From positions 1 to 50,791 of IMG/VR virus record IMGVR_UViG_3300031576_000065: a stretch of 50,791 nt of DNA; one strand, written 5' to 3'. The stretch comes from a virus (taxonomy: Duplodnaviria; Caudoviricetes). The first letter of the stretch is position 1. Every line of letters starts with the position of its first letter. The notes under the pieces were generated by a model. That model was not told where the DNA came from. It did no database searches and worked only from the letters and a program-made list of their open reading frames with translations. Made by a program: the position numbers and the translations under genes. This document shows positions 8,154 to 49,858 of this stretch, one piece after another.

Positions 8154-8228
8154 TGGCTGGATCGCTAGGACTCGAACCTAGATCGCCGGGTTCAGAGCCC
8201 GGAATCCTTCCGATTAGACGACGTTCCA
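8154..8228 (-). tRNA. tRNA-Gln (anticodon CTG)
   Basis: TGGAACG/CGATCCA acceptor stem (one A-A mismatch), anticodon arm CCGGG-CTCTGAA-CCCGG, T arm CTAGG-TTCGAGT-CCTAG, encoded 3' CCA. Confidence 0.93.
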
Positions 8229-45869: not shown

Positions 45870-46322
45870 TTATCTCCCATCACCTGGCATATAGACTTTA
45901 ACGGGGGCCTTGTCCGACCCCATTTTTCTAAAACCCCACTCCATAGACTCAGCCAGCTGGCCGTCAACATCTGAGTGGTCCTTGTTCATCAGCAAATCGT
46001 TCTGCCGATTCCATTCATCAATGATTTCGTGTCCACGTCTCACAGCATCCGACTGGTATAGCCGTTTCTTGATTTCCTCCGGTGCGGGGATTCTATTTGG
46101 GGGTACAAATCCTAGGATAGGCAGGTCGCCAAACTTACTGGCGTCGTTGCTCCCGACCTTGAGATAGACACAATACTGCTGGGTCTTCTCATTGAAGCCA
46201 AAATCTAGGTTTGGATCGTACTCCCCTGCCGCCTTGCGGGCGGCAATAAGTTCCCTCGCCTGATATCCGAAAGGTGTCCAAATCTGTGCTAATTCGCGTT
46301 CCATATGTCTCCAATTGGACAT
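45870..46322 (-). CDS. Hypothetical protein downstream of the capsid gene
   Basis: 150-aa ORF; no clear SD sequence. Confidence 0.65.
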   Translation of the reverse strand: MSNWRHMERELAQIWTPFGYQARELIAARKAAGEYDPNLDFGFNEKTQQYCVYLKVGSNDASKFGDLPILGFVPPNRIPAPEEIKKRLYQSDAVRRGHEIIDEWNRQNDLLMNKDHSDVDGQLAESMEWGFRKMGSDKAPVKVYMPGDGR

Positions 46323-46428
46323 TGGAGAAGGAGGGGGTACGTCTCCCTTGCCCCCACTTCACTAAAGGTGCGTGCATCTAAGAACAATTATACACTATCC
46401 TTCTCCAAATTATCCTAAGGATTATATA

Positions 46429-46526
46429 CTAAATCCCAGAAGGATCATCCGTCAGTCCATACAGGACCAGCTGCGTGTTCCTCCGCTGAGCGCCGAGGTT
46501 GCAATACTTCGCAAGCACGGCCTCCC
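46429..46526 (-). CDS. Major capsid protein, exon 3
   Basis: T|GG GAG.. gives (GFDA)WEAVLAKYCNLGAQRRNTQLVLYGLTDDPSGI*. Confidence 0.85.
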
Positions 46527-47174
46527 CTAATGTTTTTCAACATGGACTATATCTTTCTCAAGGGCGCTTGTGGCCTCATCGCTTTCGCTGAGCCTAGTCT
46601 CTAGAGCTTCAAAACGCTGTTGCATAAGTTCAACATCTTTTTCAACATCGCTTCGCTTGCTACGGTATTCCCGCGTTGGTATTTCCAACCACGTATCCAC
46701 CGTTTTCACCCTTTTATTATTTCCTTTGGTGTTACACTGAGCCAATTTCTCTGCTAAATTCTGGTATCTAGATACATATTTATCAGAATTTTTAGAGTTT
46801 TTAGGCTGCCCGGTCTTGGCCTTCATAATCATATTACGCCCATAATGGGCCTGTATTGAAAGCGCAATTTTTACTTGGTCATGCTTTAGGACAATGTAAG
46901 GTTTCATTTCTTCCAAAAAACGCTGAGCGTTTGTCCCCAATAACTCAAATTGCCATTGGGGAGCCCAATGTTCTTTCTGGCTTTTTCTATAGTATAATTT
47001 CCCTTCTGGAAATTCCGCAAGAAATAAACCAATTGGGAGAGGATCAGTTGAAGCAACCGCCACATGCAAACACGGATTGCTTTGTCCAGATTTTGAAACC
47101 TTAATCCAACCTTCTCCATCAAAGAATCCGGCTAGATACGCTCTCATAGAGCGTCTTTTATTATTCATCGCCAT
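46527..47174 (-). CDS. Intron-encoded LAGLIDADG endonuclease 2
   Basis: AYLAGFFDGEG..FLEEMKPY..K..Q; the G of its TAG stop is the intron omega-G. Confidence 0.88.
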   Translation of the reverse strand: MAMNNKRRSMRAYLAGFFDGEGWIKVSKSGQSNPCLHVAVASTDPLPIGLFLAEFPEGKLYYRKSQKEHWAPQWQFELLGTNAQRFLEEMKPYIVLKHDQVKIALSIQAHYGRNMIMKAKTGQPKNSKNSDKYVSRYQNLAEKLAQCNTKGNNKRVKTVDTWLEIPTREYRSKRSDVEKDVELMQQRFEALETRLSESDEATSALEKDIVHVEKH

Positions 47175-47213
47175 CTATCGTGGCCTCTCTAGAAATATGT
47201 GCTCAGGAAACCT
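46527..47213 (-). mobile_element. Group I intron 2 in the major capsid gene (687 nt)
   Basis: 5' exon ends in U within P1 GCUU|AGG-UUU-CCUGAGC; P3 AGGGUG/CGCCCU; P4 ACGGU/ACCGU; P6 AGC/GCU; P7 GACUA/UAGUC with AAGAUAUAGUCC; P9 AUGUU-GAAA-AACAU; ends in G. Confidence 0.92.
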
Positions 47214-47962
47214 AAGCGTCAAACCCAACAACCCACTTGAGAATGTTACCATCCTCGTCAAGCCAGTTCCAGTCGCCGGTATCGAACATCTTCAGATGCT
47301 TCTCGTCGAGGAAGAAGACCTTCCCAAACGGAGCCTGACGATCCGCGATAAACGGCTGACCGAAGTAGTCGAGTGCCTTAAACCCTCCCTTGAGGGTCAT
47401 CGGCTCAACATACCTGACCTGGGGCTGCAGGAGGTTGAATAGCGCACGCTGAATGCCCGGACTGGAAATCATACCAGAGGTATCTCCGCCGGCAACCGTC
47501 ACCGTGTTGACACTCTGGGTCATAAGATCCAGTGTAAGAGCACCCGCAGCGTTAATGCGGTTCACGTCCCACCAACCATTACCCACCGCCGACGCGTCAA
47601 TACCACCAAAGGTATTGGCGGCCGTAGGTATCACCTGTGACAAACCAGCGATCTCATAAGAGACCGAGGAAGCCGCAGCGTTACCCTGGCGAAAGATAAA
47701 GTCAGTACCGGAAGTCATCGTCACAACAGCACCATCAATGGTGATCTGCGCTAGTGAGACGCTGACATCGGTAACCCCACGGTCTGCAAACCGTGTGGTC
47801 GGAGCAGCAAGGGTACCGCCGTCAATCTGCATTCCAATATACACCTCACCCTTACGAAGCGGCTCGGCTGTATTGGTAGAACCGCCCGAGATGGGGCGGA
47901 TATCGATGACGTTGGCAGCGGCAGCGGAACCGGAAGAAATCCGGGCCGTACCGTCCCCGTAT
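47214..47962 (-). CDS. Major capsid protein, exon 2
   Basis: YGDGTARISSG..EIAGL..GGID..LTLDLM..LKGGF..PFIAD..; open frame from 47961. Confidence 0.88.
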
Positions 47963-48608
47963 CAAGTATATTATACTTGGACTATATCTTTCTCAGGGGC
48001 GCTAGTGGCTTCAACGCTTTCGCTGTGCCTAGTCTCTACACCTTCAAGATGCTCTCGAATCTTTTTTACATCTGATTCTGCTTCATCTTGCTTGGCTCGG
48101 TATTGTCTGGATTTAGAAGGCCAGAGTTCCACCGAGTTCACCCCTAGTGTTCCTTTTTGCTCTTTCATCTTATCGGCAATTTGTTGTGCGCGTCGATGAA
48201 AATGAGCCGGATAAGGAGCATTCATTGGCAACTTTTTACGCCGCCTATCTGCACGATACCGACTTGAGTAGTTTAAAAATGACAGAGCAAGTTTTATCTG
48301 TTCATGCTTATAAACTACATAGGGCTTCATTTCTTCAAGAAACCGTCGAGCGGTTTCTCCATATAGATTGAGCCGATAGGCCCCATCAATTTTTTTAAAA
48401 GTAGCTTCTGGATACTCTTGAAAAAGAAGCCCGATAGGGAGGGGGACAATCATATGAATTCCTACAGAAAGTCTCCACACCCCACCAGTAAAGTAAACCC
48501 CAACAGTTCCCTCGCCGTCGAATAAACCGGCAAAATATGCTTGGAGTTTCTCTCTCTTACGAGTCATACGCCCTCACTTGGGTTTGAAAGGATACAGCCA
48601 TACATTAT
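47963..48608 (-). mobile_element. Group I intron 1 in the major capsid gene (646 nt)
   Basis: P1 CAGCU|AUA-AUG-UAUGGCUG with U.G pair; P3 GGGGUG/CGCCCC; P4 CUCGGU/ACCGAG; P5 UCUGG/CCAGA; P6a CAAGAUG/CAUCUUG; P7 GACUA/UAGUC; P9 AAGUAU/AUACUU; ends in G. Confidence 0.92.
47971..48567 (-). CDS. Intron-encoded LAGLIDADG endonuclease 1
   Basis: AYFAGLFDGEG..FLEEMKPY..KHEQ; stop lies inside P9. Confidence 0.88.
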   Translation of the reverse strand: MTRKREKLQAYFAGLFDGEGTVGVYFTGGVWRLSVGIHMIVPLPIGLLFQEYPEATFKKIDGAYRLNLYGETARRFLEEMKPYVVYKHEQIKLALSFLNYSSRYRADRRRKKLPMNAPYPAHFHRRAQQIADKMKEQKGTLGVNSVELWPSKSRQYRAKQDEAESDVKKIREHLEGVETRHSESVEATSAPEKDIVQV

Positions 48609-49006
48609 AGCTGGCGAGCTAGATCCATCTTAAGGTCGTTTCTCATACCATTGATTTCGCCCTCAAGCACCTTAAGAAAGGCACCTGCCTGGGTCGCAGT
48701 CTTCACGCGGCCAAGTCCAGTGATACGAACGCGTCCGTAGAGCGCCTTGATATCGTAGACCGGCTTTGCATAAAGCTGTGCGCCAGGGTTGGCGAACTGA
48801 ACATTCTCGCCGCGTGCGAACACGCCAGCAGAACGCTGCTTATGGACAGAGAGGACGACCTGGTTGCCCGAGAAATCCTGGGACTCACGGCCGATGCGCT
48901 GAGGAATCAGCACTTCGTTGTTTAGCTGCTCCACAACGGAGCCTAGATAAACATCCTTGAGAACACCAGAAAGAGTCGAGGCAACAGATGCGCCTAGAAA
49001 AGCCAT
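48609..49006 (-). CDS. Major capsid protein, exon 1 (spliced product 414 aa)
   Basis: AGGAG RBS; MAFLGASVASTLSGVLKDVY..DLARQL; exon lengths 398+749+98=1245 nt give one open frame. Confidence 0.88.
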
Positions 49007-49054
49007 TTGTCACTCCTCTTACCGAACTTACAAACAAGTCCTAGAGTGAAGTGG

Positions 49055-49858
49055 TTAACTAAGTTGTGCTCTGACGATCTCCATAGCGGCAGCACGAAGC
49101 TGCTCCTCAGTCTGGGGTGGAACACTCTGCTGCTGTGCGCTACCCGAAGGTAGCGGAGCAGGGGTGTTAACCGAAGACTTACTACTTAGATACCTGGCGA
49201 GTACCTGATCCTGCACCGCCTGATACTGCCCCGCAGCGGCCATAAGGTCGCCATTGGTAGCAAAACCAAGGTCGATGACGGCCTGCATATCCTGTTCGGT
49301 CCAGTCTGGGTGCTGACTCTGAATCACAGAAATCTGCCGATCCAGCTGGGCTGAGAGGTTAGCTGTCTGCCACTCGTCCTGCATCTGATCCCGCCATTGC
49401 TCAAGCTCAGCAATTTTCTCCTCGTAGGGATCAGGCCCAACAGGTTGCCCGTACTCGTCATACGTTTCCTCCGCCTCTTGGAGGTAGCCTAGCTGCGCTA
49501 GCTGGCCTTGGAGGGTCTGGTACGCTTGTAGGGCGAACTGTGGGTCCGAATTGAGCGCCTGGACAAACTGAATAGCCTGCTCAGCTTCCTGACGCTGCTG
49601 TGCCGCCTCCTGAGTCTTGCGCGTATAATCAGACTGCATCTCGCGTTCACGAGCGCGAATGAAAATTTGCGCTTCTTCTGGTAGGTGGCTAATGTCGATA
49701 CTCTTTGAGGTCGGTTCTACCGACTGACTCGGTGTTGGTTCGACAGGTGCCGTCTCTGGCGCTCCCGTTGTCGGGGCTTCAGGCTGGTTCCCTTCCTGAG
49801 CCGACGAATCGGACTCTAGATCGTGGAATGCCCCCAAAGCTGCATCGTAATTACTCAA
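49055..49858 (-). CDS. Capsid scaffolding protein
   Basis: TTG after GGAGGAGG; acidic/Pro-rich N-terminus, DYTRKTQE motif, coiled coil; directly upstream of the capsid gene. Confidence 0.78.
   Translation of the reverse strand: MSNYDAALGAFHDLESDSSAQEGNQPEAPTTGAPETAPVEPTPSQSVEPTSKSIDISHLPEEAQIFIRAREREMQSDYTRKTQEAAQQRQEAEQAIQFVQALNSDPQFALQAYQTLQGQLAQLGYLQEAEETYDEYGQPVGPDPYEEKIAELEQWRDQMQDEWQTANLSAQLDRQISVIQSQHPDWTEQDMQAVIDLGFATNGDLMAAAGQYQAVQDQVLARYLSSKSSVNTPAPLPSGSAQQQSVPPQTEEQLRAAAMEIVRAQLS

Follow-up and report, generated by a model that had tools for sequence, protein, structure and literature searches.

The extension of an intron open reading frame (ORF) into the splicing structures of its own ribozyme has been named 'core creep' (Edgell et al. 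2011, PMC3073962), and Table 1 of that review lists overlaps of 0-81 nucleotides (nt) for bacterial and phage introns. According to the section of a second review that deals with such ORFs (PMC3984707), those extending into the core are tightly controlled in their expression, sparing folding and splicing, the td intron and its nuclease I-TevI being the cited case; in the same source, phage introns are said to carry mostly GIY-YIG, HNH, PD-(D/E)xK or EDxHD enzymes. Here we analyze a single contig of 50,791 bases from a virus of the Caudoviricetes (IMG/VR record IMGVR_UViG_3300031576_000065), referred to as the window, in which two insertions interrupt the major capsid gene, encoded on the minus strand. 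Judging from their sequence, these are group I-type introns, and each carries an ORF for a LAGLIDADG nuclease that is read through the entire ribozyme core.

Several described systems share part of this layout. As presented in the two reviews, the T4 td intron, also of group I, likewise interrupts a protein gene of a phage, and its nuclease gene, a free-standing ORF, runs at its 3' end into core helices; ribosomes on the exon meet an in-frame stop close to the 5' splice site, and translation of the nuclease must spare folding. The td overlap, however, amounts to 20 nt (P6a/P6.0/P7) and its ORF lies in the P6 loop, whereas the overlaps in the window reach ~186-198 nt with the ORF in the P2 loop; in addition, I-TevI is a GIY-YIG enzyme, whereas the window nucleases belong to LAGLIDADG, which by the account of PMC3984707 is not the usual phage-intron family. 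The largest overlap in Table 1 of PMC3073962, 81 nt, is that of an rRNA intron, the large-subunit rDNA intron of Synechococcus lividus, in which a LAGLIDADG ORF situated in P8 covers P6/P7/P3/P8/P9.0/P9; a text search of the source paper on this intron found no description of the overlap. The window exceeds that tabulated value more than twofold, from P2' to P9, in a translated phage gene and as a conserved family trait. Organellar creep, a related case with ORFs joined to the upstream exon that is outlined in PMC3073962 and PMC8393795, also extends an intron ORF over the ribozyme by stop loss or start gain, but it usually proceeds toward the 5' exon, with expression through exon translation and proteolysis, whereas the window ORFs have their own start and ribosome-binding site and creep 3' through the whole core. 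Finally, group I-type introns in major capsid genes, spliced in late expression, are described for mycobacteriophage LittleE and for Tuc2009 (PMC3706429). The LittleE intron carries a LAGLIDADG-related ORF, but this lies on the opposite strand, and hence cannot be co-read with the ribozyme, and the intron bears no sequence relation to the window.

A literature search for wider overlaps between ORF and core, from which most subscription journals were missing, returned only the reviews mentioned above. Some fungal mitochondrial ORFs may cover most of a core, and overlaps of comparable size may be described in the older mitochondrial literature. The ORFs of the window supply nucleotides to splicing helices by way of a displaced stop codon, which is core creep, and the notion of a conflict between translation and splicing is already in print for I-TevI and td (PMC3984707). 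The arrangement reported here therefore takes a known phenomenon to an extreme, in a conserved form, and is not a new kind of system; what appears to be new is the extent of the overlap, its conservation in a sizeable family from uncultivated phages, an RNA-driven covariation of amino acid residues and the lack of P8.

Results

Overlap of the nuclease ORFs with the intron cores

In both introns, the ORF encloses the 3' strand of P2 and every helix downstream of it (Table 1). The nuclease gene has no stop codon at the end of its domain and therefore reads on for ~58-65 codons, through P2' and the whole core. The overlap in intron 1 covers intron nt 453-638 (186 nt), and the P9 hairpin contains the TAA codon (47973-47971), 8 nt ahead of the terminal guanosine (omega-G); in intron 2 it covers intron nt 490-687 (198 nt), and the last base of the TAG codon (46529-46527) is itself omega-G, meaning that the excised intron-2 RNA would terminate exactly at the stop codon. 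At their 5' ends the ORFs start with ATG codons at intron nt 42 and 40, respectively, each preceded by a purine-rich ribosome-binding motif. An earlier note on this DNA, prepared by a model from the letters and their ORFs, had placed the starts about 40 nt after the 5' splice sites and both stops where they are found here, and the comparison of ORF ends with helix coordinates bears out the read-through that it described.

Table 1. Coordinates of the capsid exons, introns, nuclease ORFs and core elements in the window.
Feature	Positions	Strand	Basis
Capsid exon 1 (codons 1-132 + 2 nt)	48609..49006	-	tblastn residues 1-133, ORF list, spliced coding sequence
Capsid exon 2	47214..47962	-	tblastn residues 134-381, 90% identity to P0001; SU10_MCP
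Capsid exon 3 (last 32 codons + stop)	46429..46526	-	tblastn residues 383-413; spliced coding sequence
Intron 1, 646 nt, group I type	47963..48608	-	sequence, junctions, RF00028, model R1
Intron 2, 687 nt, group I type	46527..47213	-	sequence, junctions, RF00028, model R1
Intron-1 ORF, 198 residues, LAGLIDADG domain (~residues 1-140) + ~58-residue tail	47971..48567	-	ORF list, Pfam, profile, AlphaFold2, Foldseek
Intron-2 ORF, 215 residues, LAGLIDADG domain + core-encoded tail	46527..47174	-	ORF list, Pfam, 40% identity to intron-1 ORF
Intron 1 core within ORF	47963..48156	-	Rfam alignment, folding, covariation, helix coordinates
Intron 1 P2'	48156-48151	-	
Intron 1 P3	48146-48139 with 48001-47994	-	
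Intron 1 P4	48136-48131 with 48101-48096	-	
Intron 1 P5	48125-48121 with 48110-48106	-	
Intron 1 P6a	48090-48084 with 48051-48045	-	
Intron 1 P7	48034-48030 with 47984-47980	-	
Intron 1 hairpin	48029-48007	-	
Intron 1 J8/7 (no P8)	47993-47985	-	
Intron 1 P9	47979-47963	-	
Intron 2 core within ORF	46527..46724	-	Rfam alignment, folding, covariation, helix coordinates
Intron 2 P2'	46724-46718	-	
Intron 2 P3	46713-46707 with 46566-46560	-	
Intron 2 P4	46703-46699 with 46666-46662	-	
Intron 2 P5	46693-46685 with 46679-46672	-	
Intron 2 P6a	46653-46643 with 46622-46612	-	
Intron 2 P7	46599-46595 with 46549-46545	-	
Intron 2 hairpin	46594-46572	-	
Intron 2 J8/7 (no P8)	46559-46550	-	
Intron 2 P9	46543-46530	-	
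tRNA-Gln, anticodon CUG	8154-8228	-	Rfam 53.4 bits; ARAGORN

In 1.84 billion cluster representatives, a profile search returned 10,679 LAGLIDADG relatives. Of the best 150, 46 have fewer than 300 residues and enter the peptide encoded by P3-P4', and the tail reaches the peptide of J8/7-P7' in 38 of these 46 cluster representatives. At the DNA level, a covariance model (R1) built from both window introns and one relative recovered 12 distinct cores, which were aligned, nine of them close (the two window introns, L001, two in L081, L082, L083, L084 and L085, the latter equal to L087) and three distant (L014, L070 and L078). The ORF passes P7' in all nine close cores and in two of the distant ones, stopping in J6/7 in L070. 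Throughout the nine close cores the lengths of three variable segments (31/37/40, 70/73/82 and 31/37 nt) differ by multiples of three only, and the stop codons within the core add up to 0 in the ORF frame, 59 in +1 and 52 in +2, although the uniform read-through, the stop counts and the segment lengths are all partly ascertained, because the loci were found via their tail peptides. Stop positions differ between relatives. On the evidence of these alignments, read-through of the core by the nuclease ORF is a family trait, present in at least 38 protein clusters. The earlier note had regarded the architecture as extreme, which holds for the extent of the overlap when set against the tabulated maximum; the layout is not peculiar to this phage, given the number of clusters that share it.

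The two distant cores that are read past P7' differ in frame. In L014 (2444-3118) and L078 (2438-3094) the ORF crosses P3-P4 and P7 in another frame and rejoins the family frame at J8/7 (D-I-V), a pattern that implies repeated origins of read-through or, alternatively, a shift of frame. The general rule that only one frame of the core can be open was also considered, and this frame change rules it out. The L014 ORF ends 33 nt past the end (3085) of the core match to R1 and 28 nt past the terminal G (3090) of the match to the Rfam group I model RF00028, in what looks like a P9.1 hairpin.

Restoration of the capsid gene and intron ends

The capsid gene, of SU10 type, lies in three pieces, the middle one matching Pfam SU10_MCP with 24.4 bits. 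A protein search with the exon-2 product found 140 relatives at E <= 0.001, and the 120 listed are for the most part uninterrupted proteins, 398-418 residues long, with identity of up to 90%. When three uninterrupted homologs (P0001, P0002 and P0005) were aligned to the window with tblastn, their residues 1-133 fell on 49006-48608, 134-381 on 47961-47215 and 383-413 on 46524-46432, with exon identities to intact homologs of 87-97% and no frame damage. Joining the exons at the boundaries of Table 1 yields a coding sequence of 1245 nt, that is, 414 residues and a single terminal stop, colinear with uninterrupted homologs of 413-414 residues. The junction peptides of this computed product are LARQL/YGDG and FDA-W-EAV, and the corresponding motifs, ARQ[LVIM][YW]G[DS]G and D[AGS]W[EQT], occur in 45 and 95, respectively, of 114 long capsid homologs. 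The ligated exons proposed in the earlier note, CAG CTA TAC GGG and GCT TGG GAG, are identical to those of the computed coding sequence, and the expected junctions read CAGCUAUACGGG and GCUUGGGAG. In the public protein collection, the sole form of the window capsid is P0007, a fragment of 206 residues at 47215-47844 with an internal start within exon 2; hence, the introns were missed by gene callers. The window contig has a depth of 52 in run X1, which may be the run from which this DNA derives, and neither a joined nor an intronless form of the capsid gene was seen in the contigs of runs X1 and X2.

The ends of both insertions carry the expected signatures. The exon frame meets an in-frame stop within at most 4 nt of entering each intron, and omega-G is the terminal base of each (47963 and 46527). 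The last base of exon 1 is a U, forming the G·U pair of P1. In intron 1 a guide sequence at 48603-48595 contains GGCUG (48599-48595; intron nt 10-14), which pairs with CAGCU of the 5' exon in P1, and GUAU (48603-48600), which pairs in P10 with AUAC, the first four bases of exon 2. In intron 2, P1 is formed by GCUU/AGG and CCUGAGC (47207-47201). Inteins were also considered as a reading of the insertions, and they are excluded because both begin with in-frame stops.

Core structure, covariation and the lack of P8

At a relaxed threshold, RF00028 matches both introns over the full length of the model, intron 1 at 47958-48214 with 36.4 bits (E 4.8e-07) and intron 2 at 46528-46767 with 17.9 bits (E 0.16), whereas the distant relative L014 scores 84.1 bits. 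Model R1, of which both introns are members, gives 214.5 and 208.2 bits for introns 1 and 2, respectively. Unconstrained folding of three related cores recovered P3, P4, P5, P6a, P9 and a hairpin that follows P7. In the alignment of the 12 distinct cores, standard pairs fill 93.7% of pair cells, versus 35-42% in slid controls, and both-sided changes occur in 24 of 40 pairs, none of 500 shuffles matching any observed measure, although the alignment used for these pair counts was fitted to the model's own structure. Covariation is seen in P3 (double changes in five of seven pairs), P4, P5, P6 and P6a. P7 is paired in 95% of cells with zero compensatory changes, and for this helix covariation neither supports nor contradicts the pairing. 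The ribozyme fold of both introns is well supported by these comparisons, and the group I assignment made in the earlier note is upheld by the terminal signatures, the covariation and the RF00028 matches, with the reservation that the latter remain below the gathering score.

One departure from the fold drawn in the earlier note concerns P8. That note had described a stop-free run from P3 to P9, and P3 to P7, P3', J8/7, P7' and P9 do lie inside the ORFs, but P8 does not exist in either intron: the hairpin labeled as such, a 23-nt element with a GAAA loop, actually follows the 5' strand of P7 and precedes the 3' strand of P3, a position it occupies in all 12 distinct cores. In every one of the nine close cores, P3' is followed by a J8/7 of 9-10 nt and then by P7', with no P8 between them. 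Accordingly, in the Infernal alignment to RF00028 the P8 block, 59 positions long, shrinks to 0 nt in both introns and likewise in L001, and the distant relatives L014 and L078 retain only a 3-bp P8 with a GAAA loop. The missing P8 probably accounts for the sub-threshold Rfam scores. A literature search for group I introns devoid of P8 found nothing, although it was a poor search that returned only unrelated 'p85' papers. In introns of subgroup IA, P7.1 and P7.2 are located between P7 and P3'. The extra hairpin of the window cores takes up that position, but all nine close cores, these two included, are without P8, and P8 loss is no feature of subgroup IA. P7.1 and P7.2 figure among the class-defining peripheral elements named in PMC3984707.

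The P2 helix is less clear. The earlier note had the ORF closed by P2, and the ORF would indeed lie in the P2 loop, but the fraction of shuffles at least as stable as the observed helix is 0.68 for intron 1 and 0.06 for intron 2. In the same test, helices at the P2 position give 0.003 in L085 (8 bp), 0.013 in L083 and a borderline 0.07 in L082 (9 bp). P2 in the window introns is hence a plausible helix that leans on its relatives.

The nuclease domain

The two ORFs score 16.8 (intron 1) and 21.4 bits (intron 2) with Pfam LAGLIDADG_3 (PF14528; cut-off 22.5), and PF00961 scores 17.0 against a cut-off of 23.1. Near their N-termini they carry the LAGLIDADG motifs YFAGLFDGEG and YLAGFFDGEG, with the acidic residue, and the motif columns are at least 90% conserved among 37 family members. 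A profile of these 37 members, compared with the PDB, matches I-MsoI (8.2e-12) and I-CreI (~1e-06) over profile positions 5-143. The AlphaFold2 (AF2) model reaches a predicted local distance difference test score (pLDDT) of 90-98 over residues 1-140 and 48-74 in the tail, and Foldseek places I-CvuI, I-CreI and I-MsoI as its top matches (E 2e-07 to 1e-05, TM(target) ~0.7), with root-mean-square deviations of 2.4-2.9 Å over 143-145 columns for I-CreI-derived chains. The predicted fold is alpha-beta-beta-alpha-beta-beta-alpha, as in I-CreI. By this model, the first ~140 residues already make up a complete LAGLIDADG enzyme of the single-motif, homodimer type, and the remainder is extra. The window proteins share with I-CreI, I-MsoI and I-CvuI a single LAGLIDADG motif with an acidic residue (..DGEG..), a fold of ~140 residues and residence in a group I intron, but those enzymes, of 152-172 residues in their PDB entries, are tail-less, whereas the window proteins add 58-65 residues that translate the ribozyme.

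RNA and protein constraints on the tail

The tail is the most conserved part of the protein after the LAGLIDADG motif in the 37 family members, and its conserved blocks are translations of ribozyme elements: GVNSV corresponds to P3/J3-4/P4, REYRAK to J5-4/P4'/P6, LEGVETR to P6'/J6-7/P7 and SAPEKDIV to P3'/J8-7/P7'. The two strands of P3 encode the residue that precedes the first V of xVNSV and the x of SAxE. At these positions, all 38 proteins are codon-compatible with pairing (27 G/P, 5 A/A, 2 R/L and one each of W/Q, K/F, R/R and Q/C), whereas shuffling gives a mean of 22.5, and 0 of 2000 shuffles reach 38. The pattern is an amino-acid covariation imposed by the RNA helix P3, and it shows this place to be tolerant of radical replacements. 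The tail shows a weak coding signature: codon positions 1, 2 and 3 have mean column entropies of 0.61, 0.54 and 0.78 in the tail (55 codon columns; one-sided Wilcoxon p 0.014) and of 1.08, 0.91 and 1.52 in the nuclease domain, in an alignment that was guided by the protein and made of loci recovered through their tails. Split by pairing, the tail periodicity is not significant (p 0.07 for unpaired and 0.10 for paired columns). In our reading, the ribozyme sets most of the tail sequence, with selection at least holding the frame open, and the tail may in addition have a specific function as protein.

These data bear on two further explanations of the long ORF. The tail might be a functional module, either RNA-binding and maturase-like or DNA-binding, that would assist folding of a P8-less ribozyme or binding of the nuclease to its site and is kept open by selection on the protein. 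Its frame is indeed kept through the three variable segments in all nine close cores and in 38 of 46 clusters, third codon positions do vary more than first and second ones, residues such as V215, V219 and I222 retain their identity with 3-4 synonymous codons, the AF2 model contains a single helix at residues 160-179 of the tail and LAGLIDADG maturases exist, PMC3984707 mentioning a Thermotoga intron protein with maturase-like activity. Yet the tail is modeled with much lower confidence than the nuclease domain, the P3-paired residue switches radically (P, A, L, Q, F, R, C), just as pairing demands, the conserved blocks coincide with conserved ribozyme elements, part of the tail is absent in 8 of 46 proteins, and the periodicity, itself drawn from tail-found loci, weakens on splitting. 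We hold such a module to be rather unlikely.

Conversely, the tail might rarely or never be made, the folded core or fast splicing blocking the ribosomes, the actual product being a nuclease domain whose end is ragged or rescued, and the long ORF amounting to a mere absence of stops. The nuclease needs no more than its first ~140 residues to complete its fold, a stable P3 (7-8 bp) and P4 (5-6 bp) follow directly after the nuclease domain and the excised intron-2 RNA would end at the stop codon, all of which would suit this view. Against it, zero stops and loop lengths in multiples of three in nine of nine cores would be needless in an unread sequence, within the ascertainment mentioned above, and ribosomes normally unwind helices the size of P3 and P4. 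A tail that goes unmade seems quite improbable to us.

Distribution of the family

Homologous capsid genes of SU10 type contain introns of this family at no fewer than five different sites. Those of the window lie at residues 133/134 and 382, and other insertions are located at about residue 18 (L001, 2477-3083), about residue 30 (first intron of L081, ~1-318) and about residue 45 (second intron of L081, 370-1054; L082, 438-1132; L083 and L084). As in the window, L081 has two introns in one capsid gene. A related LAGLIDADG domain is found with another layout in the IMG/VR loci L029, L031, L044-L049, L057, L062 and L066, where a group I-like core lies upstream of the ORF start or overlaps it (for instance, a core at 2375-2522 and an ORF match from 2501). 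Against 50,697 phage records, blastn of 46300-49100 gave no match and tblastn of the intron-1 ORF gave one weak match, restricted to the nuclease domain; scanning viral contigs for exact occurrences of two core motifs gave 0 matches, a single-protein locus search in viral contigs found no relative, a word-based protein search found one outside relative only, and the genomes of 185,579 prokaryote species, each represented once, yielded none.

Within the sample itself, a 34-nt stretch of P6'/J6-7/P7 (48033-48066) is matched with 3 differences by a second X1 contig (5,055 nt, depth 19), and one contig of run X2, from the same sample, also matches only this stretch with 3 differences; another family intron in another genome of that sample is the likely source. 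A low-depth X2 contig shows single-base differences in the intron-1 nuclease ORF at 48175, 48205 and 48241, which may be strain variation or error. Apart from the capsid locus, the window encodes a tRNA-Gln (Table 1).

Discussion

The most satisfactory explanation, and one we regard as very probable, is that the window contains two paralogous mobile group I introns in a late, essential capsid gene, each with a nuclease gene that spans the core. Each ribozyme would consist of P1-P7 and P9, with the extra hairpin between P7 and P3' and no P8, and would hold in the loop of P2 the gene for an I-CreI-like, homodimer-type LAGLIDADG nuclease. Following the course that the relevant parts of two reviews set out for phage group I introns (PMC3073962, PMC3984707), ribosomes translating the exons would halt at the in-frame stop at the start of each intron, and the intron RNA would fold and splice, restoring the capsid mRNA. 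The nuclease would be translated from its own ribosome-binding site, on either the unspliced RNA or the excised intron, and would cut intronless capsid alleles at ARQL/YGDG and DAW/E, into which the introns would then be copied.

The order of splicing and translation admits two versions. On unspliced RNA, the layout would make the nuclease ribosome unfold P2'-P9, and translation would therefore compete with splicing; this would be the antagonism put forward in the earlier note. Should splicing be fast and the excised intron act as messenger for the nuclease, the two processes would not clash, and this alternative is equally simple. Overall, the observation made in the earlier note is confirmed, and its interpretation is partly supported and right in substance.

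Some results weigh against the reconstruction of two mobile introns. P8, a core element regarded as universal, is missing, and both cores fall under the RF00028 gathering score of 50 bits, the Rfam scan of the window at gathering threshold having returned no intron match and tRNA only; self-splicing free of helpers is therefore not assured. None of the RNA runs looked up carries the stretch. The P2 helices of the window introns (6-7 bp) do no better than shuffles, and neither ORF has a Pfam LAGLIDADG match at curated cut-offs. Moreover, 8 of the 46 family proteins stop sooner, in P4', in P6 or just past P7, and the full tail is hence dispensable, although some of these proteins may be cut by contig ends. 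To these must be added the recovery of loci through their tails and the fitting of the pair-count alignment to the model, as stated above.

The low Rfam scores, the missing P8 and the absence of the stretch from RNA runs could also be taken as signs of decay, that is, of insertions that no longer splice, or are inteins, or interrupt a capsid pseudogene in a defective phage. Such a state is hard to reconcile with the stops that open both insertions and exclude inteins, with compensatory changes that preserve the helices in 12 distinct cores, with guide pairings, omega-G and P7 pairs that are intact in both introns, with exons that closely match intact homologs in an undamaged frame, with two intact nuclease ORFs of confidently predicted fold or with the contig depth in run X1. 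We consider decay scarcely credible.

Mobile introns with core-spanning nuclease genes remain our preferred reading, and a stronger form of it can be envisaged in which the overlap is a working switch, the P8-less ribozyme depending on, or being gated by, its own translation. The nuclease or its tail would stand in, as a maturase, for the lost P8/L2 contact; alternatively, every ribosome passing through P2'-P9 on unspliced late mRNA would select between capsid mRNA and nuclease. Both the dependence and these means of achieving it strike us as distinctly unlikely; if true, however, the locus would carry an RNA/protein toggle that is complete in itself and uses a single ~190-nt stretch under two readings.

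In the review literature (PMC3073962), intron ORFs that extend into the core are said to face a double constraint, presented as an open problem: the co-evolution of protein and RNA, and the means by which folding is protected from translation. In the family described here, a natural extreme case, ~60 codons are also a complete catalytic core, and with dozens of diverged members the trade-off can be quantified by alignment as well as by experiment. The finding has practical consequences as well. Protein motifs of the tail can be read as RNA elements, so that a profile search reports as 'protein' motifs what are in fact motifs of RNA, and capsid genes are called in fragments because their introns fall under the Rfam threshold. 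Finally, the apparent loss of P8 in these introns bears on the definition of the minimal group I core.

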